Assembly: GCF_037042905.1 (NCBI RefSeq)
Contig: NC_087251.1
Span: forward strand, 41,542,001 to 41,606,000
Direction of reading: 5' to 3'
From: Lytechinus pictus
Taxonomy: Eukaryota
DNA: 64,000 nt
A model generated the notes under the pieces. The model ran no database searches. It was not told where the DNA came from and saw only the letters and a list, made by a program, of their open reading frames with translations. How positions within the stretch are numbered: the first letter of the stretch is position 1; the number at the start of each line of letters is the position of its first letter. A program made the translations under genes and the position numbers. Shown here piece after piece: positions 9,901-55,934 of this stretch.

Positions 9901-9957
9901 CCTGAACATGACTGTTCACAATACAGTTCACCACTAATAAATTTCCATATAGATTTA

Positions 9958-10774
9958 GGCTGCGTTTATGCGTCCTCAAGCCAGAATCATGATTTGAATC
10001 ATGATTCAAAACACAAACATGAATCACAATATCGCAGAATCAGCGTTTAGACGACCTTCATTCCAATGCCGTTTCTCTTCAGTTTCGGGCCGATCCAGTG
10101 CGCATCACTAGTACGCAGTTAGAGGTGATATCTCCTTGGTTTGACAGAGGAAGTTTTTCGCAAGTGTTTCTGCTCTCGAAAAATCTTTTGCTTCCAGAAT
10201 CCAGTCTTTTATACCTTATTTTGTTAACTTCTATTCTATCATAGGATCCATGCTTATATTCATCTTGTCGGTTCATCGAAAATTGTGTTCGGATGTGAAT
10301 TTCAGCGTAGATCCAAATCAACAACAACTGAGATCATTGTCTGTCCAGTTAATTCATTTACTAGAACTTGAAGTTGAAGACATGACCAAAAAAAGAAAAG
10401 TAGTGGACGATGTGATGACCCACACAGAACTTTAACATGATAAGAAATGCATGCATAGCACATATTTATGTACATACACTGAGCATATAGAGTGCCTTGA
10501 GCTTGGCAAGAGTCAAAACGAACGTACTTCGACACAGTGACGTCATAGAATCATGATTCAAATCACGATTGCGTTTATACATCCTTTTTCGTTCGTGATT
10601 CTACAGAAACGTCTTTCTAAACGCCCCTTTTTCCGTGTTTCATGTTTGTGATTTGAAAGACGTTTATTTTCACTTTTGACTACGGTAAACGCAATCGTGA
10701 TTCTGCAGAATTATGATTTGAATCATGATTCAGATCATGATTCTAGGGTAAAAAAGTGGCGCATAAACGCACCC
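9958..10774 (-). mobile_element. PIF/Harbinger deletion derivative, TTA TSD, with Myb/SANT-like remnant
   Basis: TTA|GGCTGCGTTTATGCG ... CGCATAAACGCACCC|TTA; subterminal GAATCATGATT palindromes. Confidence 0.85.
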
Positions 10775-11124: not shown

Positions 11125-14100
11125 TGAGGTTGGGTTTTCAAACTGAAGGATAGAGCGTAGTTTGATGTCTCTTACTCGGTGTACAGTGTGTATCATAAAA
11201 GAGTGACTTGGGTTGGGTTTACAAACCATGTAGGATAGAGCACAGTTATGTCTCTTGCACGGTGTACAGCGTGTATAATAAAAGAGTGACTTAGGTTAGG
11301 TTTACAAACCATGTAGGATAGAGCACAGTTATGTCTCTTGCTTGGTGTACAGTGTGTATCATAAAAGAGTGACTTAGGTTAGGTTTACAAACCATGTAGG
11401 ATAGAGCATAGTTATGTCTCTTGCACGGTGTACAGCGTGTATCATAAAAGAGTGACTTAGGTTAGGTTTACAAACCATGTAGGATAGAGCATAGTTATGT
11501 CTCTTGCTCGGAGTACAGTGTGTATCATAAAAGAGTGACTTAGGTTAGGTTTACAAACCATGTAGGATAGAGCACAGTTATGTCTCTTGCTCGGTGTACA
11601 GTGTGTATCATAAAAGAGTGACTTAGGTTAGGTTTACAAACCATGTAGGATAGAGCATAGTTATGTCTCTTGCACGGTGTACAGCGTGTATAATAAAAGA
11701 GTGACTGAGGTTAGGTTTACAAACCATGTAGGATAGAGCATAGTTATGTCTCTCGCTCGGTGTACAGTGTGTATCATAAAAGAGTGACTTAGGTTAGGTT
11801 TACAAACCATGTAGGATAGAGCACAGTTATGTCTCTTGCTCGGTGTACAGTGTGTATCATAAAAGAGTGACTTAGGTTAGGTTTACAAACCATGTAGGAT
11901 AGAGCACAGTTATGTCTCTTGCACGGTGTACAGTGTGTATCATAAAAGAGTGACTTAGGTTAGGTTTACAAACCATGTAGGATAGAGCATAGTTATGTCT
12001 CTCGCTCGGTGTACAGTGTGTATCATAAAAGAGTGACTTAGGTTAGGTTTACAAACCATGTAGGATAGAGCATAGTTATGTCTCTTACTCGGTGTACAGT
12101 GTGTATAATAAAAGAGTGACTTAGGTTAGGTTTACAAACCATGTAGGATAGAGCATAGTTATGTCTCTCGCTCGGTGTACAGTGTGTATCATAAAAGAGT
12201 GACTGAGGTTAGGTTTACAAACCATGTAGGATAGAGCATAGTTATGTCTCTCGCTCGGTGTACAGTGTGTATCATAAAAGAGTGACTTAGGTTAGGTTTA
12301 CAAACCATGTAGGATAGAGCATAGTTATGTCTCTCGCTCGGTGTACAGTGTGTATCATAAAAGAGTGACTTAGGTTAGGTTTACAAACCATGTAGGATAG
12401 AGCATAGTTATGTCTCTTGCTTGGTGTACAGTGTGTATCATAAAAGAGTGACTGAGGTTAGGTTTACAAACCATGTAGGATAGAGCATAGTTATGTCTCT
12501 TGCTCGATGTACAGTGTGTATCATAAAAGAGTGACTTGGGTTGGGTTTACAAACCATGTAGGATAGAGCACAGGCTCGATGTACAGCGTGTATCATAAAA
12601 GAGTGACTAAGGTTAGGTTTACAAACCATGTAGGATAGAGCACAGTTATGTCTCTTGCTCGGAGTACAGTGTGTATCATAAAAGAGTGACTTAGGTTAGG
12701 TTTACAAACCATGTAGGATAGAGCACAGTTATGTCTCTTGCTCGGTGTACAGTGTGTATCATAAAAGAGTGACTTAGGTTAGGTTTACAAACCATGTAGG
12801 ATAGAGCATAGTTATGTCTCTTGCACGGTGTACAGCGTGTATAATAAAAGAGTGACTGAGGTTAGGTTTACAAACCATGTAGGATAGAGCATAGTTATGT
12901 CTCTCGCTCGGTGTACAGTGTGTATCATAAAAGAGTGACTTAGGTTAGGTTTACAAACCATGTAGGATAGAGCACAGTTATGTCTCTTGCTCGGTGTACA
13001 GTGTGTATCATAAAAGAGTGACTTAGGTTAGGTTTACAAACCATGTAGGATAGAGCATAGTTATGTCTCTCGCTCGGTGTACAGTGTGTATCATAAAAGA
13101 GTGACTGAGGTTAGGTTTACAAACCATGTAGGATAGAGCATAGTTATGTCTCTCGCTCGGTGTACAGTGTGTATCATAAAAGAGTGACTTAGGTTAGGTT
13201 TACAAACCATGTAGGATAGAGCATAGTTATGTCTCTCGCTCGGTGTACAGTGTGTATCATAAAAGAGTGACTTAGGTTAGGTTTACAAACCATGTAGGAT
13301 AGAGCACAGTTATGTCTCTTGCTCGGTGTACAGTGTGTATCATAAAAGAGTGACTTAGGTTAGGTTTACAAACCATGTAGGATAGAGCATAGTTATGTCT
13401 CTCGCTCGGTGTACAGTGTGTATCATAAAAGAGTGACTGAGGTTAGGTTTACAAACCATGTAGGATAGAGCATAGTTATGTCTCTCGCTCGGTGTACAGT
13501 GTGTATCATAAAAGAGTGACTTAGGTTAGGTTTACAAACCATGTAGGATAGAGCATAGTTATGTCTCTCGCTCGGTGTACAGTGTGTATCATAAAAGAGT
13601 GACTTAGGTTAGGTTTACAAACCATGTAGGATAGAGCATAGTTATGTCTCTTGCTTGGTGTACAGTGTGTATCATAAAAGAGTGACTGAGGTTAGGTTTA
13701 CAAACCATGTAGGATAGAGCATAGTTATGTCTCTTGCTCGATGTACAGTGTGTATCATAAAAGAGTGACTTAGGTTAGGTTTACAAACCATGTAGGATAG
13801 AGCATAGTTATGTCTCTTGCTTGGTGTACAGTGTGTATCATAAAAGAGTGACTGAGGTTAGGTTTACAAACCATGTAGGATAGAGCATAGTTATGTCTCT
13901 TGCTCGATGTACAGTGTGTATCATAAAAGAGTGACTTAGGTTAGGTTTACAAACCATGTAGGATAGAGCATAGTTATGTCTCTTGCACGGTGTACAGCGT
14001 GTATAATAAAAGAGTGACTGAGGTTAGGTTTACAAACCATGTAGGATAGAGCATAGTTATGTCTCTTGCTCGGAGTACAGCGTGTATCATAAAAGAGTGA

Positions 14101-15623
14101 CTAAGGTTAGGTTTACAAACCATGTAGGATAGAGCACAGTTATGTCTCTTGCACGGTGTACAGCGTGTATAATAAAAGAGTGACTTAGGTTAGGTTTACA
14201 AACCATGTAGGATAGCGCACAGTTATGTCTCTTGCTCGATGTACAGTGTGTATCATAAAAGAGTGACTTAGGTTAGGTTTACAAACCATGTAGGATAGAG
14301 CATAGTTATGTCCCTTGCTCGGTGTACAGTGTGTATCATAAAAGAGTGACTTGGGTTAGGTTTACAAACCATGTAGGATAGAGCACAGTTATGTCTCTTG
14401 CACGGTGTACATGTACAGCGTGTATAATAAAAGAGTGACTTAGGTTAGGTTTACAAACCATGTAGGATAGAGCACAGTTATGTCTCTTGCACGGTGTACA
14501 TGTACAGCGTGTATAATAAAAGAGTGACTTAGGTTAGGTTTACAAACCATGTAGGATAGAGCACAGTTATGTCTCTTGCTCGATGTACAGTGTGTATCAT
14601 AAAAGAGTGACTTAGGTTAGGTTTACAAACCATGTAGGATAGAGCACAGGCTCGATGTACAGTGTGTATCATAAAAGAGTGACTTAGGTTAGGTTTACAA
14701 ACCATGTAGGATAGAGCACAGTTATGTCTCTTGCACGGTGTACATGTACAGCGTGTATAATAAAAGAGTGACTTAGGTTAGGTTTACAAACCATGTAGGA
14801 TAGAGCACAGTTATGTCTCTTGCTCGATGTACAGTGTGTATCATAAAAGAGTGACTTAGGTTAGGTTTACAAACCATGTAGGATAGAGCACAGGCTCGAT
14901 GTACAGTGTGTATCATAAAAGAGTGACTTAGGTTAGGTTTACAAACCATGTAGGATAGAGCACAGTTATGTCTCTTGCACGGTGTACAGCGTGTATAATA
15001 AAAGAGTGACTGAGGTTAGGTTTACAAACCATGTAGGATAGAGCACAGTTATGTCTCTTGCTCGATGTACAGTGTGTATCATAAAAGAGTGACTTAGGTT
15101 AGGTTTACAAACCATGTAGGATAGAGCACAGTTATGTCTCTTGCTCGGTGTACAGTGTGTATCATAAAAGAGTGACTTAGGTTAGGTTTACAAACCATGT
15201 AGGATAGAGCATAGTTATGTCTCTTGCACGGTGTACAGCGTGTATAATAAAAGAGTGACTTAGGTTAGGTTTACAAACCATGTAGGATAGAGCACAGTTA
15301 TGTCTCTTGCTCGGTGTACAGTGTGTATCATAAAAGAGTGACTTAGGTTAGGTTTACAAACCATGTAGGATAGAGCATAGTTATGTCTCTTGCTCGGTGT
15401 ACAGTGTGTATCATAAAAGAGTGACTTAGGTTGGGTTTACAAACCATGTAGGATAGAGCATAGTTATGTCTCTTGCTCGGTGTACAGTGTGTATCATAAA
15501 AGAGTGACTTAGGTTGGGTTTACAATCCATGTAGGATAGAGCATAGTTATGTCTCTTGCTCGGTGTACAGTGTGTATCATAAAAGAGTGACTTAGGTTGG
15601 GTTTACAATCCATGTAGGATAGA
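11125..15623. repeat. 83-bp tandem satellite, about 54 copies; about 2 more diverged units at 16032-16190
   Basis: Unit GGATAGAGCAYAGTTATGTCTCTTGCTCGGTGTACAGTGTGTATCATAAAAGAGTGACTTAGGTTAGGTTTACAAACCATGTA; period checked at 11233->11316. Confidence 0.98.
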
Positions 15624-16031: not shown

Positions 16032-16213
16032 GGATAGAGCACAGTTCTGTCTCTTGCTCGATGTACAGTGTGTATCATAAAAGAGTGACTGAGGTTGGGT
16101 TTTCAAACCGTGAAGCATAGAGTGTAGTTTGATGTCTCTTGCTCGGTGTACAGTGTGTATCATAAAAGAGTGACTGAGGTTGTGGATAGATTTCAAATTC
16201 CTGTGCCTTTCTT

Positions 16214-16960: not shown

Positions 16961-17212
16961 TCTTTCTGTAAACCATATAAGGTAAAGTTCACCCCAGAAA
17001 AATGAGGAATTGAATAAATAGAGAAAATCTAACTCATAACGCTGAAAATTTCATTAAAAAAAATCATCGGATGTAAAATAAGACAGTTATGACATTTAAA
17101 AGTTTCGCTTATTTTTCACAAAACAGTGACATGCACAACTCAGGAACATGCAAATGAGACTTTTAGATGATGTCCCTCACTCATTATTTCTTTTGTTTTT
17201 TATTGTTTGAAT

Positions 17213-21216: not shown

Positions 21217-21320
21217 ATGGCCTCTGTGTGGAAGAGACTTCAGAGGGTCGGCAAGAGAGCTGCCAAGTTCAAGTTCACTGGTTCGCTCCACGAGTTGGCC
21301 GTGGAAGCTACCAAAAAGTG
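21217..21320 (+). CDS. EHBP1: EHBP1 coding exon 1 (MASVWKRLQRVGKRAAKFKFTGSLHELAVEATKKW), NT-C2 start; exon probably begins at 21118 in the 5'UTR
   Basis: ATG in ATAATGG context; donor GTAAGT at 21321 (phase 2); acceptor ttttgtag ending 21117. Confidence 0.95.
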
Positions 21321-21602
21321 GTAAGTAATTCTAGGATGGAAGGCAAGATAATAGGGAGGTTTGGATCACATATCAGACATGTCAGCATGGAGTTGACTTC
21401 TCCATCATCTGCTTAATATTGATAGCGTATTAAAATGGTGGAGCAGAGCACCGCAAGACACAGAGCTTACAAAAGCAGGACGGTCATTTTGCCTTATTTC
21501 CTTCCTTGATAATCTGGGGATTTCCATGTTCTCATGAATAGTGACTGTAACAGTTGGTATTAGTCCTGCTTGCACATGCACAAGAGACACTGCAAGACAT
21601 AA

Positions 21603-21892
21603 AGGTCCTGTCACATCGTTCCATGCAAGCCTTGAGTGTGACTTCTTTCGCAACCTGCAGGTCACCCACATTGAGAGTATCTCACACATGCGACTGCCCG
21701 CAGGAGAACACGCAAGTCTGATTTCCCTGCAGACAAGTTTTGAACATACTTGAAACTGTGTTGGTTGGTTGAGTTTAGTGTGTGGAGGTGGCGCTATCCA
21801 TCGATATCCGATGATTTCTGTTGCTGGTGAGTTGCAGGAGATTGCCCGCAAATCACCCACAAGGCTCGCACGGAAACGATGTGACCGGACCT
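21603..21892. mobile_element. Harbinger-like MITE, TAA TSD
   Basis: TAA|AGGTCCTGTCACATCGTT ... AACGATGTGACCGGACCT|TAA. Confidence 0.8.
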
Positions 21893-23290
21893 TAAGAAGC
21901 AAGCTTGTCAGGGTTTGATCATGTGGTTCTGTTCTACAGCATCACAAAAACTGTGGTACAGGGTACTTTGGAATGTTGGAGCTGTTGTAGACAAAAAAAG
22001 AGTTGGTGATAGGGGGGAGGTGGGGAGGAACGCAAATCAGCAATACCACTCATCCCAACCATCCGTTGAAATTAGGGATGACATGGGATGGTTTAGTGAA
22101 CCAGTATAAGCTTATTCACTACAAGGAGAAAGATGTACATTACATTCCATCTGTGCGTACGCCAGGGGGTAGGCACAGTGAGCTTCAGTCAGCTGTAAAG
22201 CCGATTTTTTCCATGGGCATGCCTGTCTAGATGTACCCACACCCATCGACGAGAGTTCCAAAGAAAGATTTAAATTTTTTTGTCATAATATTTAGAGTTT
22301 GTAGTGTCTCATGTTAAGTGTGCACTTGTTTCTATTTATGTACTGTACATAAAATAACCCAAGTGTCTAATTTTTTTTTTAATTGAAGTTTATTAACTTA
22401 CCGAGTTTGCAATTTTCTGTATGTCTCCTTGACTCAGATGCTGATCTGGTAAGAGTAAGAGGAAGAGAGGGAGGGAGGCGCGGTGGTGGTCTGGGCACCC
22501 TCTCTGCTGCAGTAGCTCTAGAGCAGCTTTGGGCATAACAAAACAATACAATGCATAAAAATGCCAAAAAATACCAGTGACCTCATGGCCAAGTAACCTT
22601 TGACCTTCCCCAGGCATAGAGATGATACCATGGGTGTATGCTTGTGTCGTGTTGTGCGTGGCACCCGTTTCCTTTTGTTGGAGGATAGCAATCAACAAAA
22701 TAAGAAAAATTCATTCAATGAAATATAAATTTGAAGAATGTTGGATTGATTCAAAAGACAAGATTATTCAATGTTTTATTGAATTATAATCTACTTGTGT
22801 GTTGACAATTGCATGATTTAAGAATTCAACATTCCGTATTGGCTCATGGTTGTGTAAACAGATTTTTATGATATTTAATTCTTTCTGTTTTGCTCTAGAA
22901 TATAAGGACAGTATTCAATCCAACTCCCAAGTAATTTGTGAACCAGATTACCCTTAATGTTTTCTAGTTCTGTCAAGAGGGAAAAATTTTCTCTGAGATT
23001 GGATTGGCATTACTATTTTTCCCCGAGGTGCGAAGATCCGAGGGAAAAATACAGGACTTTGCCAGTACAACCAAGGATGAATATTTCCCTCTATACTTTT
23101 GAAATAAAGGCCTGGTATATTTGTTTTATATATTTTACTTTTAATAAGTTAGAACAATAGATCTTGATGATCTGAACCAAAATATAGATAATGTGCTGCG
23201 CTGACTGACCTATTTTTCCTGAAGCCACACGCTCGGCGGAACGCGGATGAGTGCCCGCACCGTCCCTTCACGGGACTTGCCTGGTAGAGA

Positions 23291-23867
23291 CCCGGGGGGG
23301 GGGGGGGGCACTTCCATTGACGAGTGGATACCATGCGCGACCATGGGGTCTCGAAAAGCACCTAAACACGTATTTTCCATATTCTGAAAATGCACCCCTT
23401 AACAAGTATTGGCATGTGAAACCCTACCCTTAACAAGTATTGGAAACAAAACGATACTCTTGGCAAGTATTCCCTGAATTGACCCCTAAACAAGTAACAG
23501 TTACAACAATATTTTTATTGTTATGTCACTGTTGTCGGTTTTACCTTTACCTGATTAGGTTGAGTACAGCCCCATCTCCCACATCTCGCGCAGAATCGTA
23601 CTCTAAACACGTAGTGTCGACTCTTGGGGCAAAAAGTACATCCTTTATAAAAACGTTTTAGTCTTAATTTTTTACACCCTCGCAAATTTGACCCTAAACA
23701 CGTTGCTTTCCTAGCGAAAATAGATACGCTTTTTTATTATTTTAGTGTTTTTGACACCCTTATTACGGTACGTACGTAACGTGCCCTATCTTGAAAAAGA
23801 CATCTTTTTTATGTGTTTTTTTGGTCGCGCATGGTATCCACTCGTCAATGTAAGTGGCCCCTCCGGG
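23291..23867. mobile_element. MITE with CCCGGG(G)n termini, 7-8 bp TSD (G)GTAGAGA
   Basis: Near-perfect TIR CACTTCCATTGACGAGTGGATACCATGCGCGACCA and its reverse complement at ~23822-23856. Confidence 0.9.
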
Positions 23868-26133
23868 GTAGAGACACCTCACTGACTGGTGCGTCCGAGA
23901 GATTGCTTGATCTGTGACGTCAGTGATGGAATATTGTGCTATTCCATCATTGTAGAATATTTGAAAAAAATGTTTTGTTGATATTTTATATGCATGTACA
24001 TTTTAATTGGAGAGTGGGAAATCTAGGACATCAGACAGTTCTGGTGACTCATGAATGCAGCACAGTAAAAACTTGTAAAATCTCTTTATAGATTATTCAA
24101 TTCTATCCAATTAAGAAATGAAATATCCTACCCAGATATTATTTGAAGGAAAATGCAACTGTAAATGTTATTGTAATGGCCTGATTCATCAAAAGAAATA
24201 CTGCTAACAGATATGTAATTGTACCACAGTATATATGTAGAATATACACATTTTGTTGAGTAGATCTCTGTCTTGCACTGTGTTTGACATTTATGCAAGC
24301 TTTTGGAGTGATAGAGATCAACGATTTCCTGAACAAGAATGCTCCATAGTTCCTATGTACTATAAATAAGCCCAGCATCATCCTAATATAGCTCTCTGTT
24401 CTTTTCTATGATGTGAGTAAGTTGGCTCTCAATCAGCTGACTATACTCAATAATAATATTCCCAAAATAAACCTGTCCAATCATTAGATTGCTCCCTCTG
24501 GTGTTTAAGATTGTTATTTCTGAAGTTTTTTATATCTAGTCAGCACAGCCATTCAGTGACTTTTCTCTTGAAGTTCCAAATGACTGGGGTGAAATATGTT
24601 GTTGTTTTTTGTGGTAGTGGTGGTAGGCTAGATGGAGTGGGGGCTTTTTTTTTTTCTTTCTTTTTTTTTTGAAGATCCTGAATTTAGAATTATCTTTATT
24701 TTATTGTAAAAATCATATCCATGGCATTACAAGTTTTTATTGAAATTAGTTTTGTTTTTTATTTAACTATTTTTGCTTTCATGTTTTATCAAGTAGCTCT
24801 AGAATTTTATCTTCATATCGAACTGACATTGCAGATTTTGAGGCAATGGATTTTGTAGAGTTTGTTTGAAAATCTAATATTTGTTCATATAATATTAGAC
24901 ATACCTTTGAGAAAAAAATAAAGGAAAATGGGAAAGTTGTATTTTTTTTCTTAACTTATTTATGGAATACAATGAAAGCATTGATTGAACCCACTGGAAG
25001 AATTGTATACCACTGAATTGGCTAGCTGCCTTAAATGAGTTCATATTTCATTCCTCAATTCACAAAACAACCATCAATCAAATATACAATAGAATGCTCA
25101 TCAAGATGAGTAAGAAGCAAGTTGGGTTTTAGCAGCAGGTTTATGATAGTTAAAATCATGAGTAGCAAGAGCTACCCCATTGACCCTCTATAGCCTCAGC
25201 TATTTTGAAATTGCGCTGCCCGAGGGGGGGGGGGGCTTATTTGCCGCCCTCCCCCCCCCCCAGATTCCGGTATATTGTCATGACAAAAATTGGCACACGC
25301 ATCACCATGATGTAATCTCCAAAATTGGAAAGTTAATTGTCCTATTAAAAATAATGTGACAAAAACTACATGTACCATACAAAAGTAGATGAAAGGAACT
25401 CTCAGCAAGAGTACCCCGGTTTGTAGAAGATTGCCCTCTTGTGTTCAGATTATAGACAGTCTCCAACACAGTGCTCATTGTACACAATATCTATCCAACA
25501 GGCTCTCCTCTTGTTGACGAATTGGAACCATTTGATTTAGGAGAAGACTGACCTCTAGTGTCTGTAACTGAGAAGTCTAGTACATTGCAGTGAAATTAGG
25601 TTAAAAAATTATCTAGTTCAGAATAATTGATGCCCTTTCTTGTGATTCTTTTAGCAGTAGTTAATTTAAAATAAAAGTTTACAAAAAAATCACGGTCAGG
25701 TTAACACATGTCATTCTTTAGTTCATTTTAATATTTGTTTATTCTTGTTTTCCTCCTACAGTTTGTTCAACACTCTTGTTTTTTTTTTTATACAATTATA
25801 ACACTTTAAGTTCAGGCCAAGTATGTTTTCATCTACTGGTAGCAATTTTTATGTATACATGATAAAATGAACAGTCATTGACATTTATTGTTCAAACAAA
25901 ATTTTTTTCCCCCTCTCTTCAGTAATGAAGTGGAGGCTTCTGCAAATGAGACACATATTTGGGAATTCTATTAAAAGTCTTTCCTCCATTATACTGCAGA
26001 GTATGAAATGAAAAGTGGATACTATTGATTGAACTGCTAAGTCTTTGATAGTCATGGTTATTACCTTAATCCCGTTTAATGTCCCCAATCCCTGGCATTA
26101 AAGATCTTGTCAACTACTGGGTATTTCATCAAA

Positions 26134-26616
26134 AGGTGGTTTCAAACCGCCTCGATCATAAGAATCCCCGTTAAATTACGAGAACTTTTTTAGGCTAAAA
26201 AATACCCGTTAATTATTCCTGCATTAACACCGCCCCGAAACATACCCTTCGGGATAAATTCCTGAAGTTAGGAGCATGCGCAGTATGGTCTGATAAGCAG
26301 GCAAGGCGCGAGATTCAAAACCACTAGCTCAGCAGCCACCCACGGCGCCCGCGCCCAACTACACGCTGGGCTAAAAGTTCCCGTAAATTGCTTTCACATT
26401 GCCAAAATACCTGCGACCTTGGACCTTGGAAAAATCCCCGCGAAAGTTATTGTAATTTTGCCGAGTACCTACTATTTAGTGGGTATTTTCTTTCGGGGAT
26501 ATTACGCGTAATTTGCTTTCATATTGCCAATATTACCTGGTATTTTCTGATCGGGTAAATTTCCCGATCAGAAAATACCTGGAACTGACGAACTTCGAGG
26601 CGGTCTGAAACCACCT
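26134..26616. mobile_element. Harbinger-like MITE, AAA TSD
   Basis: AAA|AGGTGGTTTCAAACCGCCTCGA ... TCGAGGCGGTCTGAAACCACCT|AAA. Confidence 0.85.
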
Positions 26617-27149
26617 AAAGAGAACACACCTTTGGGATGAGTAGGGGTGAGAGGTTGTTAAAGATTTCAAGCAAAATCATTTTATGATCCATTCACAATT
26701 CTTTCACATCATTTTTTTCTCCCCTTTCTCTCTCACCATCTCTAGCTTTCTCTATTTTTTTTAGAGTCGTGGTAAGATGCAGAGGGTGTTTAAGAAACAA
26801 GTGCGCTAATCTGAACGAACAAATAAAAATAAGAGTTATCCGCTTCACCCTATCAGCTCACTCACTTCCTTGATGCACCATCCAGCACCCTTTTAGCTTC
26901 CCTCTCGCCCTTGGGAGATGAGATTCACAATGGCTGCTCCATTGCCTGGGGAATTCAAATGACGTTTCCCTGCACCGCAAGAGATCTTTATTCTTTTCCC
27001 TTTCTATTGTGTCATCTTCTCCTTCATGAAGACCATCAACTACCCCTATTGTAGGGGCTAATAACCACTTCTCACACCAGCAGGGACTGTGCGTGGAGAC
27101 GAGATGGGTAATTGCTGAAAGAAGAGTCCTTTGCATTCAAGTCTCCTTT

Positions 27150-27465
27150 TTCCTCTTCCTCCTCCTTCTCCTTCTTCTTCTTCTTCTATTCCTTCTTCTT
27201 CTTCTCCTTCTCCTTCTCCTTCTTCTTCTTCTTCTACTTCTTCTTCTTTGTCTTCTCCTCCTTCTCTTCTCCTCCTCCTTCTTCTACTTCTTCTACTTCT
27301 TCTTCTTCTACTTCTTCTTCTTCTTCGTTGTCGTCTCCTCCTCCTCCGTCGTCGTCTTCTCCTCCTCCTCCTCCGTCGTCGTCTTCTCCTCCTCCGTCGT
27401 CGTCTTCTCCTCCTCCGTCGTTGTCTTCTTCTCCTTCTCCTTCTTCTTCTTCTACTTCTTTTTTC
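27150..27465. repeat. Compound (CTT/CCT/CGT)n microsatellite
   Basis: Pyrimidine-rich triplet repeats; explains the three overlapping low-complexity ORFs. Confidence 0.95.
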
Positions 27466-30204
27466 CCTTACTTTATCTCCCTTCTGTCTTTTTTTGTTAT
27501 CTTACCAGTCAGCTCATCTTTTTTTCAGATGTTAAAGCTCATCTCAGCAGAAACATAATTTCTCTGAAGCATTTCACGAAACAAGTGATTATATACTACT
27601 GAAATCCTTGCATGTGATTGGCTGAGATCAAATTTGTCAGTGAAAAATCAACTGACAAGATGCTCCATGAAACCGTGGACCTACTAAGGTCCATGATGAA
27701 ACACACCACACAGAATATGAATAAGCCCTTCACCCTTTCCTATCTGTAATATCCTCCATTAACATATTGACAATGAATAAAGATAATGAAAACATTGATA
27801 AAAGAGACATTTCTCTTCTTCCACAGTTTCTCCAAATATACATGGCTCTGGTTTGGTATAGGTTTCATGTTTGAGATATTTGTTCTAGTTCAGAATAATA
27901 AGGGAATATAAGCTAGAGATTTACTAGAGAGCAGTAATTGCTGATGTAATTGCCATATCTGATATGTCTATTATCAATTTATTTCAGCCGCCATCACTAA
28001 CATGGATTTAGTGGATTCCAAAGCACAATAAATTTATTACCTATTTTGACTGCTTTCACAGACATTATCCATCCCTTCCAAATTTCGCTATTAGATTTGT
28101 TTTGATTGGATTCTGTTGCCTTTTTCTTATATTGTCATGCAACTCAATCACAGCACATTGAAACAAAAATGACCTGGGGCAAGTGTAGGCCTACAGTTTG
28201 AACGACATTCTTTGATAAATAATTTACGACCATTTATCTATTGATCCCTTGTGAGTACTAGAGATGCTTGTGGCTTTCATCCATATAATTAATATCTGAC
28301 ATATTTTGATTGATAATGTGTTGAAATTATGGGTATTCATGTAATTTTGTCCTTATCCGATTTCCACCTGTAAAGTCCTATTCAGTGCATTAGATTCACT
28401 CGTCTTAATACAATGGAGATAATTGAAGGGGATGACCATCGATATACTGATCCCATCAATTTAATGAAGACCTCTTGTATTGTTAACATGAGATCAAGGA
28501 TTTTCTATCAATAAAAACAGGATGTAAACAACTTCAGTACAAATAGAAAAATAGATTTCGATTCAGTTCAGCCAGAGTACAGCACTTATCTTCTCAACGA
28601 ATCCGAATATTTTAGTTTTCATTGGTTTTATAAAGTGGACAGAGGTAAAATTAAAAACATACAAGTTTCTTCTATCCCTAAAACAATAAATGATTTGGAG
28701 TTATTATGATTGTTTTTCTATTTGGATAGATGTGGATAGTAAAAAATATAGTTTTTAAAATGTACTTTAATTTTGAGAATTAATATTGTGGAATCTGTAA
28801 TTGAATATTTTTTGGGGTAGCATTGCATCATGATGACTGTTTGGCATACTAGATGTTTGAATCACCCATCCATTTCTTACCAGGGTTGGGGCTTTAAAGA
28901 ATCTTGTAGGAATCTTAAAAGGAAGGAAGAAGACCTCATTGTGAAGGAATGTAGTAGCCATTGTCCAGTTTTTTGGTGAGTGACCATCAAGTGGACAAAG
29001 AACGATACACATGACAGCTCATCTAGCTCTCAGAGGTATCGATTGGCTACTGGCTCCTTTCATTTCTTCATGCTGCAATGCCCGTTCATCAAACCCCCTT
29101 CTATTCTTTGTTTCTATCTTCCTTTGTGATGGAAGGAGGGATGGTCTACTGATGATGCCCAACCAAGAAGGGTATGGGGGGAGAAACCCACAAGCCACAA
29201 TAAAAGGGTTATAATCAATTGCACAAAAGTCCCGTGAATAGATCTGAATAGGGATCATAAAAGGAAAGCAAATAAAAGAAGGTTGGTTTCATCTGGCTTC
29301 CTGAAGAATGCTGGCCCTACAATCTTGGTTTGATTCACAGGATTAATGCCTAAGCCGATGTACAATGCAGATTAGCAGTCTTAAAAAAAAAATGAAAGCT
29401 GAGATTGTAAGTCGGCGAAGAGAAATGAGTGATGGAAAGCTGCGGTAATGTCTGATTGGCCTCTAAAAAGTGTCTCTCCTTCTAACAGGTGTGTGGATTT
29501 TAGCCGCTGGCCTGGGCCCCGGGGATGATTTACACCTCTATCTGCTTTATATCGAATAAAGTTACCTTTTCTTTTGCAAGGTGACTCATCCCTTTAAATT
29601 CTAAAATCCTTTCCTTAAAGATGTTACGCTACAAGGTCATAAGATAGTGATGTCTTCAGAATGTTACATCCCCATTATTATGACCACTAGCAAGAGTTGA
29701 TAGAAATAAAGTTTACTCACCCTAAATTATTAAAACCATATTAATTTTGCCGTAAATGTAGTTATTTCATCTCTGAATTAATGGAGAATGAGAAAGGGAA
29801 CATTGCAGTGATGAAACCATTAATTCATTTTCTTCATAGTACCGCAGGCAGTATCACTGAATTTTCATACTGTAGTAGCTTTAATAGAAAGGATCTTCAC
29901 AATGTCCCTTTCTTGTGAACTAGATATCATTTAATGAAAACTATTATTAAAAGTTTAATATTAAAGCATTAATGCAGACTCGAATTCAGGGGCACTCTTT
30001 TAGCATAAAAAATGATTAAACAATTTTGATCATTCAGTGGACGTCTATTGCTCCAAGTTTGATTTTCTTTAAAAAGATGACCAGACAATATTTGTTCATT
30101 CTACCTTATTGAGCGGAGGATCCAACTCATGAGCACTTCATGTCTTTCATATTCCAGCCAATCTCTTTCCTTTCTTGATAATTATAGTACTAAGTTTTTA
30201 TATA

Positions 30205-30264
30205 AGAAAGTCAAAAAGGGGCCTAAGCTTTCGATCCTAGCAGAATCTTCGTCGGAGGCAAAAA
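30205..30264 (-). mobile_element. Penelope-like retroelement fragment with 13-bp TSD
   Basis: AAGTTTTTATATA at 30192-30204 and 30265-30277; the insert carries a minimal hammerhead. Confidence 0.7.
30221..30259 (-). ncRNA. Minimal type I hammerhead ribozyme (U4C variant)
   Basis: Minus strand GCCU-CCGACGA-A-GAUUC-UGCUA-GGAUC-GAAA-GC-UU-AGGC. Confidence 0.7.
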
Positions 30265-30594
30265 AAGTTTTTATATAGTGCAAATTACTGTTAAGTCTAA
30301 TAGCATTCTAAAAAGAAGGAATGAGAGCAAGAAAGAAAAATAAAATATTGAACCTGTATATGTCATCACCTTTTATTTCTCTATTTTTATTTTAAATTCC
30401 AAAAGTTCTTTTTCAGGACTCTCCATGTTCTTTTTCAGGACTCTCCATATGGTGATGTGTTAAACCTCACTTACATTTAAACCTTCTTGTGTGTTCATCA
30501 TGTTTTTGTTTTGTTTTGATTTTTTGTGAAGTGCACACCTAGTTACCAATAATACATATAGCATTTCCATTTATTTGAATGCAGTATGAAATAA

Positions 30595-30712
30595 AAAGAG
30601 CATTGTCGATTAAATGCCTTGCTCACAGGGATAGGTGCTGCAGCCGGGGATCGAACCTCGGACTCTCCATGTACATGTATAGCCAGACGCCTTAGACCAC
30701 TCCGCTTCCGCA
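30595..30712 (-). mobile_element. tRNA-derived SINE fragment
   Basis: Minus strand has A-box-like GAGTGGTCTAAGG and B box GGTTCGATCC followed by GAGCAAGGCATTTA. Confidence 0.75.
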
Positions 30713-33700
30713 CCTTCATGTCAAGAAGTGACTGGAAGACAAACGGGAGAGGATTTCAGGAAGAGTTTTGTCAGTGATTTTTACTGACAAATTAGCTCTT
30801 GGCCAATCGGATGCGAGGTGCTCCAGTTGCTTATAACATCTGTCACTGACAAAAATCTTCGTGAAATGCTCGCAATGACCACTTTCTGTTCTCTACATTG
30901 TTAATTCTGATGCTCAAACAATTCCAAATTTAATGAAGTCTGATTCCATGAACTTCTTGCAAAATTTGGGAACATTTTTAGTTTACAAGAAGTTGTAGTT
31001 TATGACTGTTCCCCAGGCCGGTAGATTTGAAATATTCATACTGCAAAATTGCAAATCTAGGGCAAACAAGTCTATTGGACTTGATGAGTGTTCATTATAT
31101 TCATAGAAAACATCAAGTATGAAACTCACTCTTTATTGTTTCTTTTCTAGGACTTGGGAAACGTTTCATGGAAGGATTTGTGAGATATTTTATCTGATAA
31201 ATATCTGTTTTATCAAATAAAAATGTGTTTTATCTGACAGTTACCTAGGAACTGTGCTTATCAGCCAATTATAATCTATGAAAATTGTCAGATCTGACAA
31301 CTTGTCGGACAACAAACATTGATGAACTGATCCCCTGAAATCAGTTCAGTAATGAACCAAATCAGTAGTCAATAATATCTTTAGTTTCAAGCAGAAAAGT
31401 GTTTGCATCACAACATTACATTTTGATTAATCTGGACAGCTAACATTCTTCAGAAAAATTAATTAGGCCTATAGATAAAAACACATTGATTACTTCCTGT
31501 TGCTCTAGTGTGCTCTATTATAGTTATATCCCGATTTCAAGAAAAGAGATTTCTCAATTGTTCAGGTTCAAGACCGTGGGTTTTATTTTGAAAAGACTTC
31601 TAATTTGTGAGTCTCTCTCTCTCCCTCCGCCCGCTGGGTCTGAACAATTAGCAATCAAGGTCCTACTTCAAGATCATCAGCATGAATAGTAGGATCAGAA
31701 TTGCCTTCATTAGGGTTCAGATTATTGCTGGGAAAACCTCAAAATAATACTTAATTTAGAAGTAAGAATAGAATCCATACCTCAACGTATCTAGCATCCT
31801 TTATATTTTTCATTTCCTTCTATACGTTTTTTTAAGTGTTTTCTCTTGTACAATTGAAACCCCTCACATTCTCATGGTGTTTGAAATAATTTATGAAATC
31901 ATTTCATGGAAAATATCTTGTATCTTGACTTTGGAGTCTTGAATTTGTTTCTTATTTCTATAGTTGAATTCAAGCCAATTGCAGGGATAGTACCCCTTTT
32001 TTAGCTAATCATTTAAAAATTTTAAATAAAAATATATATGATTGACATTTCCAATGGATAATTAATTTGTTAAACATGATAGACTTACTGTTACAATCAA
32101 ATCTTGCAATTTATTTGTTATGTTACCAAAGTATGGGGTCTCATTAATTCCAATCATAAATTGATACAAAAGAAAAAATGACTCAAAGCGAGAGCAAATA
32201 TTGCTCCTGACATTGCAGCTATAGAGTGAGTCTTTTTAGGTCAGAGCCTGTGGGATCATTTAGAGGCCCTCTGTATGTGATTTACGGTCTGTTTTCAACA
32301 GTTGTTCTGGCTAACAACCTGGTGTGCCTACACAAGAACAGTGAGGATTACCATTGTAAAAGGTGAATACTTTCTAAACCAGCCCCAGGGTACACGCGGC
32401 ATGGAAGGTCCCATGTGCTCTTATACAGCAGCAGCACCCTTTCATAATCACTAACGCAGCAATGAGTAGGTAGATCTAGGGGGGAAGGAAGGGGAAGGGG
32501 AGGGGGTTACAACTAATGCATGAAATATCAAACCCTACATTTTTTTTCTCCATCAGGTGAGAATCAATCTGACCAATTATTTCCAACAATTATTCCATGG
32601 AAGTTTATCGGCCGAGAACACTAGTTTGTAATACTGCACGCCTGCTAGAAATGTATCCGCTTCTGCATTGTACCTAAGTGTCAGAAACCCAGTGTACTAT
32701 TGCAAAAGATCGTGACGCTGGCCAAAAAATCCCCATCACCCGTTGTACGTCAGTGGGCCTTGTGTCAACACCGAAGTAGTTTTCATGCGGAATGTCGGAA
32801 ACAGCTTGTCAATTTGTCAATCAATCTTGCAATTGGCAACACCTGGGCTTATCTAGACCAGTCACTATTGTGGCATTGACCAAATCTATAGGTGTCATGA
32901 CGTTTGAAAATTCAATCGATGGCGGCAACTCTTTGAAATTTAAGTACCTGTGCTCAGTTATTACTGACTTAATTGTACCCGTATTCATTCCAGAAAAGTT
33001 CTTTTGACTGGACAGAAAATAAAATTCACACTCTGTGACTGTATGAAACCATAAAAATGTTTATTGTATTCATTAACCATTTCAATTTTAAAAAGAAATA
33101 TATTCTTTTTTTCTTGCATTAATCTCCTAATAGTATTACCCATTTGAATAAATCTTTCTTGAATACTATCAATACTTTCCATGTTGTTTTCCTTCTTTAT
33201 ACTTTGTATCTGACCTGTGACTCTCTTAAAAAGAAATTGTTACAATATAATATGACCACTGTTCCAGAATAAAGTTTTATGGTATCCCTCAAATATGGTT
33301 AGTTTTGATCAAATCCTGTTTTTTTTTAAGGTTATGGCTCTATTGAATCGAGGTATTGAGTATATGTAACTGTTAACAGCAACTGAAAGCATTCTAAATC
33401 ATTCAGCTTTGGATAGTGTAATGATTTTGCTTGTATCTACAATTGTGATTTCCCTTCAGATCTTCCTTGTATAGACATTTGAAACCAAACAATACCTAAA
33501 ATAGTGAAATGGGACTAAGCAGATAAGAAGGTTCTTATTGCTTTCTTTTCTCCTCAAAATTTTGCATTATCTGTTTTAATCAGATGATCTCATATTGTGC
33601 AGAAACATATCCCCATAAGACAAGCTAATCACCATTGTCCGCATTAGAATTGGAGCTTAGTGCTAAGGATCAAGAAAAGAATTAGTCCAGATCTTCAAAT

Positions 33701-35504
33701 CCTCATTGTCCACTTCAAATACTTGTATATGAACCCTTCTGTTAAAGGTTTAGGACCTTTCTCTGTGAAAATCGTTGAAATGGAGACATCATTGTACTGT
33801 GAAAATTTGGTTCATTATAAGTTCCAAACTGTATCAGTTTGATCCATGGAGAAAAATTACACAGGAGCTTGGGGTGATTTTGCCTCCATAATGCTCTAAA
33901 GAGGCCAGGAAATAAATACATTTTGAAAAAAATGGAAAATCCACATTAACCTCAATGTTAAAGCTTAGCAGATGAAGGCAGTAAGTCGTGGAAAGTAACC
34001 CCCGAAAATAAAATGAAAAATTTTGCCTGGTTTGATATCAACCAAACATTATTCTTTCTCAAAATCGTGTTCTGTTAGTTGTTATTTTGTCATATTTGCA
34101 GTCCATCACAAACATTTGTTGTCTTAATGTAAGGTTGTTAGCATTTTGTAAAATCCTAATGAATGTATAAAAACTGCATGATGAAATCTCTCTCCGAAGT
34201 CGATTGGTGAGTGCATGAAAGTGGGTGTCAGTAAAGAGATAGAATGAAAAGAAAAAGATGCATTCATGATTTGTTTGGGGTTGATTTTTTTTTTTTGGGG
34301 GGGGGAGGGGGTCTAATTGGTATAAAATGAGAAAATCTCTACCTTGCAATCTCATTAGAAATGTAAGCATCTTTTTTTGATATTGACACCAGATATTAAC
34401 AGTCTCATCCCCCATTGACTTCAACATCCTCTTACTCTTGGATGAGATCTTAGGGTTGTAATAGGATTCTGGGTGTTTGATATCAAACCCACCAGCTAGT
34501 ACTGACTCTGTTAGGATCCTAATCCTATCAAAGTTTTAGACAATTTAAGATGATTGCCTTCCCTCATCAACCGCTTTTAACACTATCCCTCCTGCAATTG
34601 TTTGCAAACATGGGAATTAGCACCAAATTAGAGATGTCTGTGGTAATAAGCACATTTTTATTGAGACTGAAGTGTTTAAGGCTGTATTAGCCAAGTATTA
34701 GATGTCAAATAGGATATGTGTTGACTTAACACCCTCACCTGCAGGGTGTAACACCAAAGCAGCTTGGGTTATATAAACAAGCCTTTACTCTGGTTTTATT
34801 CCAAAGATGGCTTTATTCCGTTTATCTTCAAGATTACTGATGTCCGCTATTGTATTGTGCTGCATTTAGATACCGTATAACATGTTCTTCAACTGGTTTA
34901 TCTCAATTTGATGTAATGAGCTTTATGTTATTGGCAGTTGTTACCTGGGTGGTTTTGCCCTTTTCAACAAACTTGTGTTAATGATTACAACTACTTATAT
35001 GTTATAGTGACTGGTTGATATTTAGTTGTCATTGTTGTGAGCTCATTGAAAAACTGGTAAATCTGATGAATGATATTTAAATCAACTGAATCAAGTGTCC
35101 CTTCTGTCAGAGTTAAGTCTGGACCTATACTCTGGTATAGTTCTAAGAAATGCAGTCAGAATTGATAATTACTATATGAATTATATTGAATTTTAGATGG
35201 TCAAATACTGTTAAAGGTTTTATGATTTTTCTTGATTATATATGTTTTTAATGACTCTGACATTTGAAGTTTGTCAGTTTATCAATTTTCAGTTGATAAA
35301 TTCAGAAAATTAAAATCATTTCCATCCTGATGAGTATCCAAAGTCGTCACTTTTCTGTCATAAGTAGCAATTCTTACATTTTCACCTTGGTTTTTTTTTA
35401 CCAAAGAATATTAATTTTCAAGATGTGGATTCTTCTCTTAAGAAAGTGAAATTCCTTTTATTCTTATTTTTCCTTGTTTTTATTCTGAATACTCTCTGTT
35501 TCAG

Positions 35505-35562
35505 GCAACCAGATAGATTGTGTGTAATATGGACAAGAAGGGGCAGGAAGGAATCCACTGAG
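35505..35562 (+). CDS. EHBP1: EHBP1 coding exon 2 (QPDRLCVIWTRRGRKESTE)
   Basis: Acceptor tttcag, donor GTGAGT, 58 nt, phase 2->0; WTRR motif of NT-C2. Confidence 0.95.
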
Positions 35563-35798
35563 GTGAGTATATATTATATTATCACATATTTTGTCTGTTT
35601 TTTTCTTCACTTAATATATATTAACTGTTGTCTATTATGGGTATTTTGCATTATTTGTATACTTGATTGATCTTATAATAGATTTGATAAATGGATTGTA
35701 TTCGCTGATAAATCAAAACATATGGAGATATAAACATGATCATTGGGAATCTGTTTGAGATAAAAATCTTATTATCAAACATCGGGTTTAGATGTTAA

Positions 35799-42908: not shown

Positions 42909-45135
42909 GTATGTTGTAAAATTCAGGGCGCTCTGATTAATGATACTTTAATTTGAACATTCCGAAACAGATATAAGACATTTGTAATGATCTCCCTATG
43001 TAGGTCTTACAGATCTCTAAATCCTGAATTTCTAAGGCATGTTTGCTGTTGTGTAAGGACAATGCATTTTTCATGTAACATAATTGATGTATATAATTCC
43101 CGACTCATTTATTAGGATTTGCTGGCATATTCCTTGTGATTTTTAAGTTCAAATGAGTTTGGCTGTCAGTTAACAGACTGTTGGACTGCTTGTTATAGCT
43201 ATTTATTTTGTCTGATTTGATGGAAAGGTAAGAGGATTTGGTCAGATCAATTCTTTCTCATCTAATTCTTCATACTTAAGAAGTATGCTTCATTGCTCTT
43301 GTCCTCCCATTTATTTCCCCCCATTTACTCTCCTTCGCTTTCTCTCTTCACTCTCCATCTCTTTATCTTCCTTTCACACCATCACTCTTTCGTTCGTTCA
43401 CTCTCTCATGTAATGTCACTCTCCGTATTATCTTTTTATTTCTTATTAACTCTTTTTTTTTGCTTTCTGAATATAAACTCATTCTTATATCATAGTTGAA
43501 CTGATTTCTTTCTGCCTCTTTCCATTTTTTTTCAATTGCTGTCATTTATGAGAATTATCACTGTCTATCCTTGTATTTCCCCCTCTGAGTCTTAAAAAAA
43601 ATCTATATTTTCTTGTAAGTTAGACTAGCACATGGAGATCTGTCTTTCACCCCTTTCTGTACTTTCTCTTTATTATTTGGGGGAGTATAGAGTCTAAAAG
43701 AGAGGGAAAAAAAGAACATAAAATTTATTTGAGAGTGGAAAGATCAAAAGGGTGAAAAAAGAGGGTGCATGCAGTGAATGGAAGAGATTTAGTCAGTGGC
43801 ACACAATAGTATGAGAGGCATTATGTAATCAGCCCTAGATCTATCTTATTCATATTGGGGCTTCCTATTCAATCAGAGTACTTTTCAATAGATGCCTGAA
43901 TGAAAAGATGGGGAGGCGTTGGCCTCATCACTTTCTTCTATCCCCCCCCCCCCACTCCCATCAGAATCACTTTTCCCCCTTCTTTTTCTAATTTCTCAAG
44001 TAGAGTTACATCTGAGTGGACAAAGCATACAATGTGTCAGATCGTGTTCTTTGTCTCTTGACTTGAGTTTGGTGATTGTAGTGACCATAGAGTGACCATT
44101 ACAATAGATGATCCCCACTCCTAAAGCGGCTTTACACCCCACATTACCCTGCATGCTAGGGCTGCTGCCAACTAGATCCTATTGTCCGAGTCATCTTGAA
44201 AGGTTTTGATTGAAACTTTACAATTCACTTTTTATTATAACCTCTCGACACCCCTCCTATCCTTCCTTCTTTCTCTCTCTCTCTCCCTCATCTTGTAAAA
44301 AAATAATGGGGAAGAGGTGAAAAAAACTATCATGAAATAAAAAAAAAGCTTAAGGCACTTGCAACACTGTCAGTTTATATGCTTTCACCCTCCACGTCTT
44401 GTGTGTATCTAAATTGATTATTTTCAGATTTAGTGCATTATAGATGCTGATGATTGTTGGTCATTATATCATAATCTTTTTCTCCCTCAGGGGGGATGAA
44501 AAGAAAAGGGTTGCTAACATCTTTCCCCACTCTCCCTTGTCCTCTGTCACCTGCTTTTTAAGTTTTTAAGTACAAAATGGAAACCATGGAAATTAGTAAA
44601 ACCATCATGGCCCCCATTAGTTTAGAAGAATAGAGAAATGAACAGATGCACGTTTTTAAATCTGGGATTTTATCCGTGAAATGAAGAAAGTTGAATTCTA
44701 ATGTTCATTATGTAAGTTAATCCCTACTCTGGAAACAAAATGACATTTTAAACTTGGTAAGAAGACTAATTGAAAGGGGGGAATAGAAGTGCTTGTTACT
44801 TTTTTCTCTCAACTTATATGGCAAAACTAACCCTTTTGGTCACTAGATGTGTAACCATTAATTCTGAAGAAAAATTGATTTAACATCAGTGGATTTTTTC
44901 CCCTCTTTAGTCAATACATTTTTGATTTAGAATGACTGAATTAAAGAATCTAATGTCTGTAACCAATTGATGGAATTAAGCCTTGCTATTAATCCTTTTC
45001 ACCACAAAACCAGTTTATGAAGGGATTAGTAAGCATGTGGTCTAAATATTGGTTTGGTCTATTTTTCTAAAATAAAATAGAAAGCGCTGTATTTGTCTGG
45101 TAATTTGGGGGTCTTTTAGTGCTGAAAGAAATTAA

Positions 45136-45729
45136 AGGACAAGTCCACCCCAACAAAAACTTGATTTGAATGAAAAGAGAAAAATTCAACAAGCATAACA
45201 CTGAAAAATTCATCAAAATCGGATGTAAAATAAGAAAGTTATGACATTTTAAAGTTTCGCGTCATTTCACAAAGCAGTTATATGCACATCTCAGACAGTA
45301 TGCAAATGAGGGAACTGATGACATCACTCACTCACTATTTCTTTTGTATTTTATTATATGAAATATTTTGATTTTCTCGTCATTGTCATGTGAAATGAAG
45401 TTTCATTCCTCCCTGAACACATGGAATTCCATTATTTTAACATTTTGTGGTTCAGGCAAGGAGGTCCTAATTGTCAAATTCGTAAAAATTGAAATATTGT
45501 ATAATTCAAACAATAAAAAACAAAAGAAATAGTGAGTGAGTGACATCATAGACTCTCTCATTTGGATGTAACTGGCTCGTTCATATAACTATTTTGTTAA
45601 AAATAAGCGAAACTGAAATGTCATGACTTTCTTATTTTACATCCGATTTTGATGAAATTTTCAGCATTGTGCTTGTCTGATTTTTCTCTATTGATTCAAA
45701 TCAACATTTTTCTGAGGTGGACTTGACTT
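45136..45729 (-). mobile_element. Kolobok-like element, inverted copy of 9210-9811
   Basis: TTAA|AGGACAAGTCCAC ... GTGGACTTGACTT|TTAA; high identity to the reverse complement of the 9210 copy. Confidence 0.88.
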
Positions 45730-46316
45730 TTAAATGAATTTCATGCTCTAATGAAGTATCAACTTAAAAGTTTTATTTTAATATACACTGTACATTATAC
45801 TAACTCTAAAAACTACTAAAAAAGACTTTCTGAAAAAATATGCAGAAATTTGCACCCAATGAGCTCCTCTTCAACCCTCGAAATAAATTCATATGGTCTT
45901 GCCTTAACAAATTTAATGTAATGCTTATACTGTACACTGAAGCTTCTATTTTATTGAGAGAAGGTGCCCTTATTGTTATATTGTTTAGTTCATGTTTGCT
46001 GGTGGCTTTTGTTCTTTTTCAAGGACATTTTTTTCTATCTCGTAATATGATAAACAGTGAAAGTTAACAAATATTGTGGTATATCAGATCCCATTAAAAA
46101 AGGTTTTAATGTGCATTTGTGTGCTCTTTCAATTGGTGATTTTGAAAAGTTAGTACTACTTGAGTTGTCTGTGTCTTTCTCTCACTGTAAAGTTATTTCA
46201 TCCATACTTTCTCCCTATTGTACTATTGTTCACTTTTGTACTGTTTTTTTCTTCATGGAACTCCCTTTAACTGCATCTCCCCATTTCTGGTGATAATCCA
46301 TTCCCTTCCCCCTACT

Positions 46317-46580
46317 TCATCTTACGTCCTTACTGCACTGCTAAAAGGTTCCCTCAAAGTGCGATATTTCATGCTGGTTCCCCCATCGTACGTCCTTACT
46401 GCACTGCTGAAAGGTTCCCTCAAAGTGCAATATTTCATTCTGGTTCTCTCATCTTACGTCCTTACTGCACTGCTGAAAGGTTCCCTCAAAGTGCAACATT
46501 TCATGCTGATTCCCTCATCTTACGTCCTTACTGCACTGCTGAAATGTTCCCTCAAAGTGCAACATTTCATGCTGGTTTTC
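46317..46580. repeat. 66-bp minisatellite, 4 copies
   Basis: CGTCCTTACTGCACTGCT at 46325, 46391, 46457, 46523. Confidence 0.95.
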
Positions 46581-55240: not shown

Positions 55241-55934
55241 GTAGGCTAAATTCACCAACTACATCTGAATGATTTGCCGTGTGAATATTACAATGTTAAA
55301 GTCATCCATGTTCCACTATTAGACCTCGATACTCTGCTCCATAGTGTTAAATAGTTAGTTTGTTATGTTTGATCATTCATTAGATTTTATGATCTTCTCA
55401 GGTTTATTAGACAGTTCAATAGTTTGCAATGTTCTGATCAATGTTAGCTAGCTTTTTGCTGTTTGCAATGTCCTTTTCTATAAATTCAGACAATGGACAA
55501 GATTGATTACAGGCTTTCCGGGAAGAAAACCATTTTTTAATTGTCCCTTTCCTTTTTCTTCTTACAGATTTGCTTATCAGGGTATTGTTTCACAAGTATT
55601 TAAGGATGTCTTATGGCACTTATCATATCACCATGTTGGTCAGCTTATGCTTATATGACATGCACCATTGTGCAGTCACCAACGAAGCTATGGCATTATA
55701 GTCACACTTTAATCTTTGTGAAACACCCCTGCCCCTCTTGAACCTATGTATCTCTCAATGATTCCCAGTTTGCAGGACTTAACTTTCTTTTCTCTCTTCC
55801 TCTGTATACCCATGATCTGTCAAGAGTCAGAAAGGCGTTACTCAACCTTCTTGATTTAATGCCCTTTTGACTCTTAACAGATGTTGTGTTTGCTGATGTT
55901 TCCCTTGTACTTCTTGTCTTACTTGTACATGTAG

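Follow-up and report, generated by a model that had tools for sequence, protein, structure and literature searches.

The pLTRs of metazoan Penelope-like elements (PLEs) contain minimal hammerhead ribozymes (min-HHRs), as defined by Cervera and De la Pena (2014; PMC4209133), who describe thousands of such motifs in each genome, dispersed and single, and ascribe them to truncated elements. Their alignment includes two Strongylocentrotus purpuratus families and one from a starfish, with CUGACGA cores in the three echinoderm rows, and the cleavage data given there report no cleavage for monomers and a low level for dimers; a review (PMC6765202) restates the dimer model. According to Frangieh et al. 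(2024; PMC11167929), the protein of the Anolis carolinensis PLE Poseidon cuts AT-rich DNA and begins reverse transcription at an internal position, 3' of the hammerhead, using unprocessed RNA; the hammerhead depends on the protein, and insertion in vitro does not require the hammerhead. Copies that are heavily truncated at the 5' end, pLTRs that stand alone, duplications of 8-10 bp and junctions with microhomology are reported by Craig et al. (2021; PMC8557442) and Arkhipova et al. (2013; PMC3846280), the microhomology lying at the 5' junctions in the latter account, and solo PLE pieces are common in the literature.

A 60-nt Insertion in the First Coding Intron of EHBP1

The locus compared here with these systems lies in a stretch of 64,000 nucleotides (64 kb) from Lytechinus pictus, which we call the window. 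A plus-strand frame at 54560-55249 is 94% identical to EHBP1 of Lytechinus variegatus and 82% identical to EHBP1 of S. purpuratus, and tblastn with the L. variegatus protein (P0001) placed residues 1-35 at 21217-21321 and residues 36-55 at 35506-35565; a Pfam search with four single small exons gave nothing useful. The intron between these first two coding exons has approximate bounds of 21322-35503 on the plus strand, taken from the tblastn matches, with GT and AG at its ends. The insert sits in this intron with its hammerhead on the minus strand and the gene on the plus strand, so the exon mapping bears out the antisense orientation relative to the EHBP1 pre-mRNA that an earlier, sequence-only reading of the window had proposed.

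The insert (30205-30264, minus strand) is flanked by an exact 13-nt direct repeat, whose left copy (30192-30204) adjoins the 3' end of the element and whose right copy (30265-30277) adjoins its truncated 5' end, leaving 60 nt in between. The coordinates and letters that had been given for the whole of 30192-30277 were correct on re-check. When the surrounding 5 kb were shuffled 500 times, 11 of the shuffles contained an exact repeat of at least 13 nt at a spacing of 40-150 nt. Contigs assembled from four of 14 public runs (X1, X2, X13 and X14) were aligned to positions 29000-30560, and one contig of run X2 (contig 30), from a related organism (organism B), covers 29815-30191 and 30265-30388 with position 30191 joined to 30265. 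At this joint 73 nt are skipped and 13 letters are ambiguous, and the 13-mer is present in a single copy. The insertion into the EHBP1 intron, with a 13-nt target-site duplication as earlier proposed, is thus confirmed by an exact repeat and an empty site. Run X1 carries the filled left junction with no differences over 1231 nt and is possibly the source sample, and the X13 and X14 contigs gave no coverage of the insert flanks. The neighborhood of the target has an AT content of 76%, compared with 64% for the window.

Organism B is ∼8% diverged from the window at this locus, and a gain of the insert would be likelier than its precise loss in organism B, which would place the insertion after the split from that organism or make it polymorphic across the split. 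The identity of the two 13-nt copies adds little on age, because both would be unchanged with a 34% chance even at 8% divergence. The description of the insertion as fairly young therefore holds only loosely, resting on the site being empty in a relative of this divergence and gaining little from the repeat.

Several other repeats lie in the window. Some 300 nt from the insert, at 30580-30714 on the minus strand, a tRNA-like head (16.4 bits, below threshold) is followed by a short body, and the element looks like a tRNA-derived SINE. An exact 22-nt tandem duplication occupies 30405-30448, and by eye 13 letters of it (30416-30428) recur exactly at 30660-30672, inside the SINE-like element. Two copies of one ∼630-nt repeat, 91-98% alike and with long terminal inverted arms (MITE-like), lie in opposite orientation at 9203-9832 and 45115-45733, with fragments at 17066-17212 and 49792-49893, and a pair of 43-nt inverted arms (23301-23343 and 23822-23864, 93% complementary, 478 nt apart) probably marks another MITE. 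Tandem repeats comprise a young 83-bp array at 11127-15623 (∼54 units with 91-96% matches and a few 72-nt deletion units) with a further remnant at ∼16050-16170, a 66-bp repeat in four copies (46317-46577) and a 59-bp repeat in 3.3 copies (56106-56297).

A Minimal Type I Hammerhead with C at Position 4

Read along the minus strand, the insert consists of five U, GCCU, CCGACGA, an extra A, helix II, GAAA-GC-UU, the cut site, AGGC and a 16-nt tail. The hammerhead motif itself spans 30221-30259. Helix I has 4 bp, formed by GCCU (30259-30256) and AGGC (30224-30221), and encloses the core C3 C4 G5 A6 C7 G8 A9 at 30255-30249 with the extra A at 30248. Helix II has 6 bp, one more than had been counted when the stem was first described; it opens with the pair G10.1-C11.1 (G30247-C30233), includes one U-G pair and closes on a 3-nt loop. 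Downstream of it, 30232-30225 read G12 A13 A14 A15.1, G, C, U16.1 and U17, which puts the predicted cut site between 30225 and 30224, with 40 nt of the insert before it and 20 nt after it. The 16-nt tail 3' of helix I (30205-30220) ends at the 3' terminus of the repeat family, as judged from the loose ends listed (see below). A palindromic AAGCUU had been noted in the place of stem III, and the palindrome is indeed present, but the helix III that a dimer could form is the 4-nt AGCU; the 6-nt form includes A14 and U17, both of which are unpaired in the active hammerhead fold.

This layout matches the consensus in the supplement to PMC4209133 except at position 4. As in the min-HHRs described there, the motif is of type I, with a short 4-bp helix I, a long helix II, an extra base between positions 9 and 10.1, G10.1-C11.1, a palindromic 15.2-16.2 without a helix III loop and a U-rich 5' flank, and the GAAA, the A15.1-U16.1 pair and an NUH cut site are all present. 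An S. purpuratus row of that alignment has CUGACGAA, and a turtle row ends G-C-U-U as the insert does, although the helix sequences of the insert are unlike those of the two S. purpuratus families. In contrast to the C found here, position 4 is U in 44/44 of the rows compared, although the descriptor used there demanded the core. The earlier reading of the minus strand as a minimal, PLE-like type I hammerhead is hence upheld for the helices, core layout and palindrome, with position 4 as the exception.

Position 4 (30254) is the only one of the seven positions of the C3-U4-G5-A6-N7-G8-A9 core that does not fit, and given this C we class the copy as a decayed or variant min-HHR and not as an intact one. 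The same core change, U4C, has been met in a viroid ribozyme that is a canonical viroid hammerhead. There it is reported to have lowered activity considerably in vitro while infectivity was kept (cited in Perreault et al., 2011; PMC3088659). A loss of this kind is less likely to be offset in the motif of the insert, since it has no helix III and no evident tertiary contacts.

A relaxed descriptor that allows C or U at position 4 has a single match in the window and 5 matches in 200 shuffled windows (0.025/window), and 0/5 of the latter have a flanking direct repeat of at least 10 nt. With a covariance model built from 14 unrelated loci, drawn from the 19 stem-forming ones described below and with the window excluded, the site scored 38.1 bits (E ∼1e-8), a score that is partly circular because those loci had been found with a pattern taken from the window motif. 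The next best match in the 64-kb window reached 16.6 bits and lacks helix II, so this search gave no second copy of the motif. Known hammerhead models did not recognize the site: Rfam gave 0 matches at gathering score over the 64 kb, and a search up to E 10 over 2.5 kb returned no hammerhead and four weak unrelated matches. The folding energy is no better than that of shuffles (z of 0.53, 0.26 and -0.37). The AGCU duplex has a predicted free energy of -2.5 kcal/mol, and in the two-strand minimum-energy fold the helix II strands pair across molecules, which leaves the palindrome unused and gives no active dimer.

The Motif Class Is Tied to the 3' Ends of Penelope-like Elements

Our search pattern for further loci combined GAAAGCUU with the core (either C or U being accepted at position 4) and the initial three pairs of helix II, and it matched 58 metagenome and 19 viral loci (77 in total). 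A stem filter (helix II of at least 5 bp and helix I of at least 2 bp) was passed by 19/77, all from metagenomes; the 19/19 viral and 39/58 metagenome matches that failed it were treated as chance. The stem-forming loci have U at position 4 in 19/19 cases compared with 29/58 for the others (Fisher p 2.5e-5), although the 19 are not independent, several being from the same assemblies. Similarity to RT/GIY-YIG proteins, sought by tblastn with four of the loci's own proteins and with self matches removed, lies upstream on the same strand in 6/19 stem-forming loci and in 0/58 others. Of the five frames tested with Pfam, all gave GIY-YIG (four above the cut-off and one below) and two gave RVT_1. 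Among the 13/19 stem-forming loci without a PLE match, five have less than 140 nt of upstream sequence.

An alignment of the six PLE-linked loci and the window shows compensatory change in 7/7 of the pairs that the pattern does not fix, with 92.9% of cells paired, a level reached in 0/500 shuffles; a separate 12-row version is partly circular in that its rows were selected on stems. The six (L007, L038, L026, L046, L058 and L025) are metagenome contigs in which a PLE RT/GIY-YIG is followed by a minimal hammerhead ending GAAAGCUU, and the frames in PLE-linked contigs end 158, 106, 111, 3 and 741 nt upstream of the motif. Eukaryote-like metagenome contigs also contain two further multi-copy minimal-hammerhead families, each with a common tail of ∼40 nt past the cut site, one in L006, L009, L012, L016, L036 and L055 and a second in L008, L025, L048, L056 and L057. 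Exact family patterns matched once each in prokaryotic genomes and in viral contigs, and neither match was a hammerhead on inspection.

Together these data tie the motif class to the 3' ends of PLEs. The loci share the motif class with the insert and not its family, and the tie of the insert's own family to a PLE ORF would follow only by extension from the class. The PLE origin put forward in the sequence-only reading accordingly stands for the class, where RT/GIY-YIG similarity lies upstream of the motif in 6/19 loci, and would be an extension from it for the family itself, of which 30 letters of a majority line are visible upstream of 30263. Four PLE proteins showed no similarity to the 64-kb window at E 0.1.

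An Abundant Family with a Fixed 3' End

Over the bin 30219-30271 the contig depths sum to 55,004 in run X1 against 4.2 in the left flank, a ratio of ∼13,000, and 304,008 in run X2 against 28-41 in the flank, a ratio of 7,400-10,700; these are ratios of summed contig depth and not of copy number. They would imply thousands of family copies in both organisms. For X1, X13 and X14, whose library type is unrecorded, depth is no guide to transcription. Within the window itself the motif is not repeated: a 12-mer of it has 3 matches with up to 2 mismatches compared with 3.14 expected, the upstream 17-mer has 0 matches, and the insert locus shows no tandem or inverted pLTR arrangement.

The ends of family copies were read from the loose ends of contigs, of which 24 of 125 rows are listed; copies under ∼31 nt cannot be aligned. 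Among the rows listed, the largest group of upstream loose ends in each run is at 30263 (13, 9, 9 and 42 contigs), and the majority lines of these 73 contigs have the same first 15 letters past 30263 in 4/4 runs. The family therefore continues upstream, and the A-run at 30260-30263 (plus strand) is templated and is not a poly(A) tail. The U-run at the truncation point (30260-30264, minus strand) thus comprises four letters templated by the family and one extra, and it adjoins two T of the target. On the 3' side the loose ends listed, at 30201-30217, agree for at most ∼2 nt past 30205, beyond which the runs diverge. A fixed 3' end with frequent 5' truncation, in the hammerhead sense, is hence present among the rows listed, and it is the pattern of target-primed reverse transcription with truncation. 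The extreme 5' truncation that had been proposed for the insert is borne out by these copies, which share the 3' end and often extend upstream. Apart from the 30263 rows, 24 contigs in the rows listed end at 30259-30266, compared with 2 that stop within the core; family copies of the short length of the 60-nt insert thus recur among these rows.

No differences inside the insert are among the rows listed for the four runs, probably because the high-depth contigs are too short to show changes away from their ends. The longer family pieces listed differ from the window by 1-6 letters and never by 0, and in two pieces that span position 4 there is just one differing letter, as would fit a shared C4 and a U4 subfamily neighbor alike. 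Weighing the U4 of 19/19 outside loci against these near matches, we put the odds between private decay and a family or subfamily variant at about even. As a separate observation, read by eye, the first four letters of the family past 30263 are the reverse complement of 30210-30213, so that full-length copies could close a distal helix I (four pairs) beyond a pyrimidine-rich internal loop; the 60-nt copy has lost that strand.

Alternative Origins of the Insert

The same enzyme could have acted on another parent RNA, the insert then being a truncated copy of a PLE-mobilized non-coding element such as an animal retrozyme or a pLTR-only derivative. No ORF is linked to the family of the insert, and the very high depth suits a short non-autonomous repeat. 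The animal non-LTR retrozymes described by Cervera and de la Pena (2020; PMC7229834) and by Li, Clavereau and Pollet (2026 preprint; 10.64898/2026.07.22.740005) are likewise non-coding, with a type I hammerhead, long target duplications and a probable origin, as proposed there, from PLE pLTRs. Retrozymes are, however, tandem units of 150-450 nt with mostly canonical hammerheads (PMC7229834), whereas here the piece is single, 60 nt long and carries a minimal motif, and the loose ends listed share nothing beyond the 3' end, unlike those of a tandem unit. On this evidence we consider a non-coding parent unlikely, and the retrozyme named beside a PLE in the sequence-only reading was not borne out.

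The excess of ends at 30259-30266 over those in the core (24 contigs against 2, without the 30263 rows) might instead point to a 5' boundary that is favored where helix I begins and make the ∼60-nt ribozyme-only unit the mobile element itself. We hold this to be very unlikely: the 73 contigs of the 30263 rows continue into common family sequence, the end points are scattered over 30248-30266 with neither end at the cut site, 60 nt is a unit without a promoter, and A/T microhomology explains the pile-up at the U-run, which is itself seen among 24 of 125 rows and with copies below ∼31 nt beyond alignment. Another candidate is a LINE-type retrocopy with a poly(A) tail, inserted in plus orientation, in which case the RNA would carry the complement of the hammerhead. 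The plus strand of the insert ends AAAAA and the duplication begins AA, 7 X2 contigs run on from 30266 with an A-rich majority line, and 13 nt is a usual length for a LINE duplication. Yet the A-run is family sequence with no untemplated poly(A) tail, 4/5 of its A being templated; the largest loose-end group listed for each run goes on beyond 30263 into family sequence other than A, the family is fixed at its opposite end, on the 30205 side, and the motif lies on the ORF strand in 6/6 PLE-linked loci, all of which makes a LINE-type origin highly improbable. There is, finally, a negligible chance that the hammerhead likeness arose by accident within an unrelated repeat. The lack of an Rfam match, the unremarkable folding energy and the core mismatch would all be expected of such a likeness, but against it stand the 0.025 descriptor matches per shuffled window, the 38.1 bits scored with a model from outside the window, and the agreement of the extra base, G10.1-C11.1, the palindrome and the U-rich flank with the published consensus (PMC4209133).

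A Probable Truncated Penelope-like Tail with a Hammerhead That Is Likely Inert

We conclude, with good confidence, that the insert is the 5'-truncated 3' tail of a PLE whose hammerhead is probably inert at this site. In the mechanism that we propose, the RT/GIY-YIG protein of a PLE would nick an AT-rich site with a 13-nt stagger, and reverse transcription would be primed on uncleaved RNA, 20 nt downstream of the cut site of the hammerhead. Synthesis of the cDNA would pass through the motif and end 60 nt on, at the U-run that precedes helix I; there the terminal TT of the target could pair with the cDNA A-run as a possible microhomology. Cleavage by the motif in the parent element would involve dimers joined through the AGCU palindrome or would be assisted by the protein. 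The inserted copies of Poseidon likewise run through the cut site and have an AT-rich target (PMC11167929), and the 40 nt before and 20 nt after the cut site in the insert fit the priming on unprocessed RNA described there. Against this explanation count the departure at position 4, the lack of an Rfam match, the 13/19 stem-forming loci with no PLE match and the lack of PLE protein similarity in the window, and further two differences from described elements. The 3' end of the anole element lies 111-118 nt into the ORF and ∼85-92 nt past the cut (PMC11167929), whereas here it lies 20 nt past the cut, far shorter, in a piece with no ORF, and the duplications described for rotifer PLEs, at 8-10 bp (PMC3846280), are shorter than the 13 nt found here.

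The copy itself is probably inert given that it is antisense to the pre-mRNA, finds no partner within the 64 kb for a 4-nt helix III, bears the C4 change and is missing the upstream strand with which helix I could be extended, and it would cleave poorly even with the minus strand transcribed. Taken alone the locus matters little, as dispersed minimal hammerheads from truncated PLEs have been known since 2014, sea urchin included. It is nevertheless a clean example, in which the empty site and both junctions are readable and the inserted cDNA runs through the cut site, in line with the in vitro result for the anole element.

A C4 shared by the whole family would matter more for the role of the PLE hammerhead, because the great success of a family with so impaired a core would speak against a need for cleavage. 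It is a doubtful reading that a family with such a nearly dead core has been amplified to thousands of copies that stop preferentially at the base of helix I. If it were true, the folded motif would be a structural landmark for the PLE reverse transcriptase that sets the ends of the short copies, and cleavage would be dispensable for the spread of the family.
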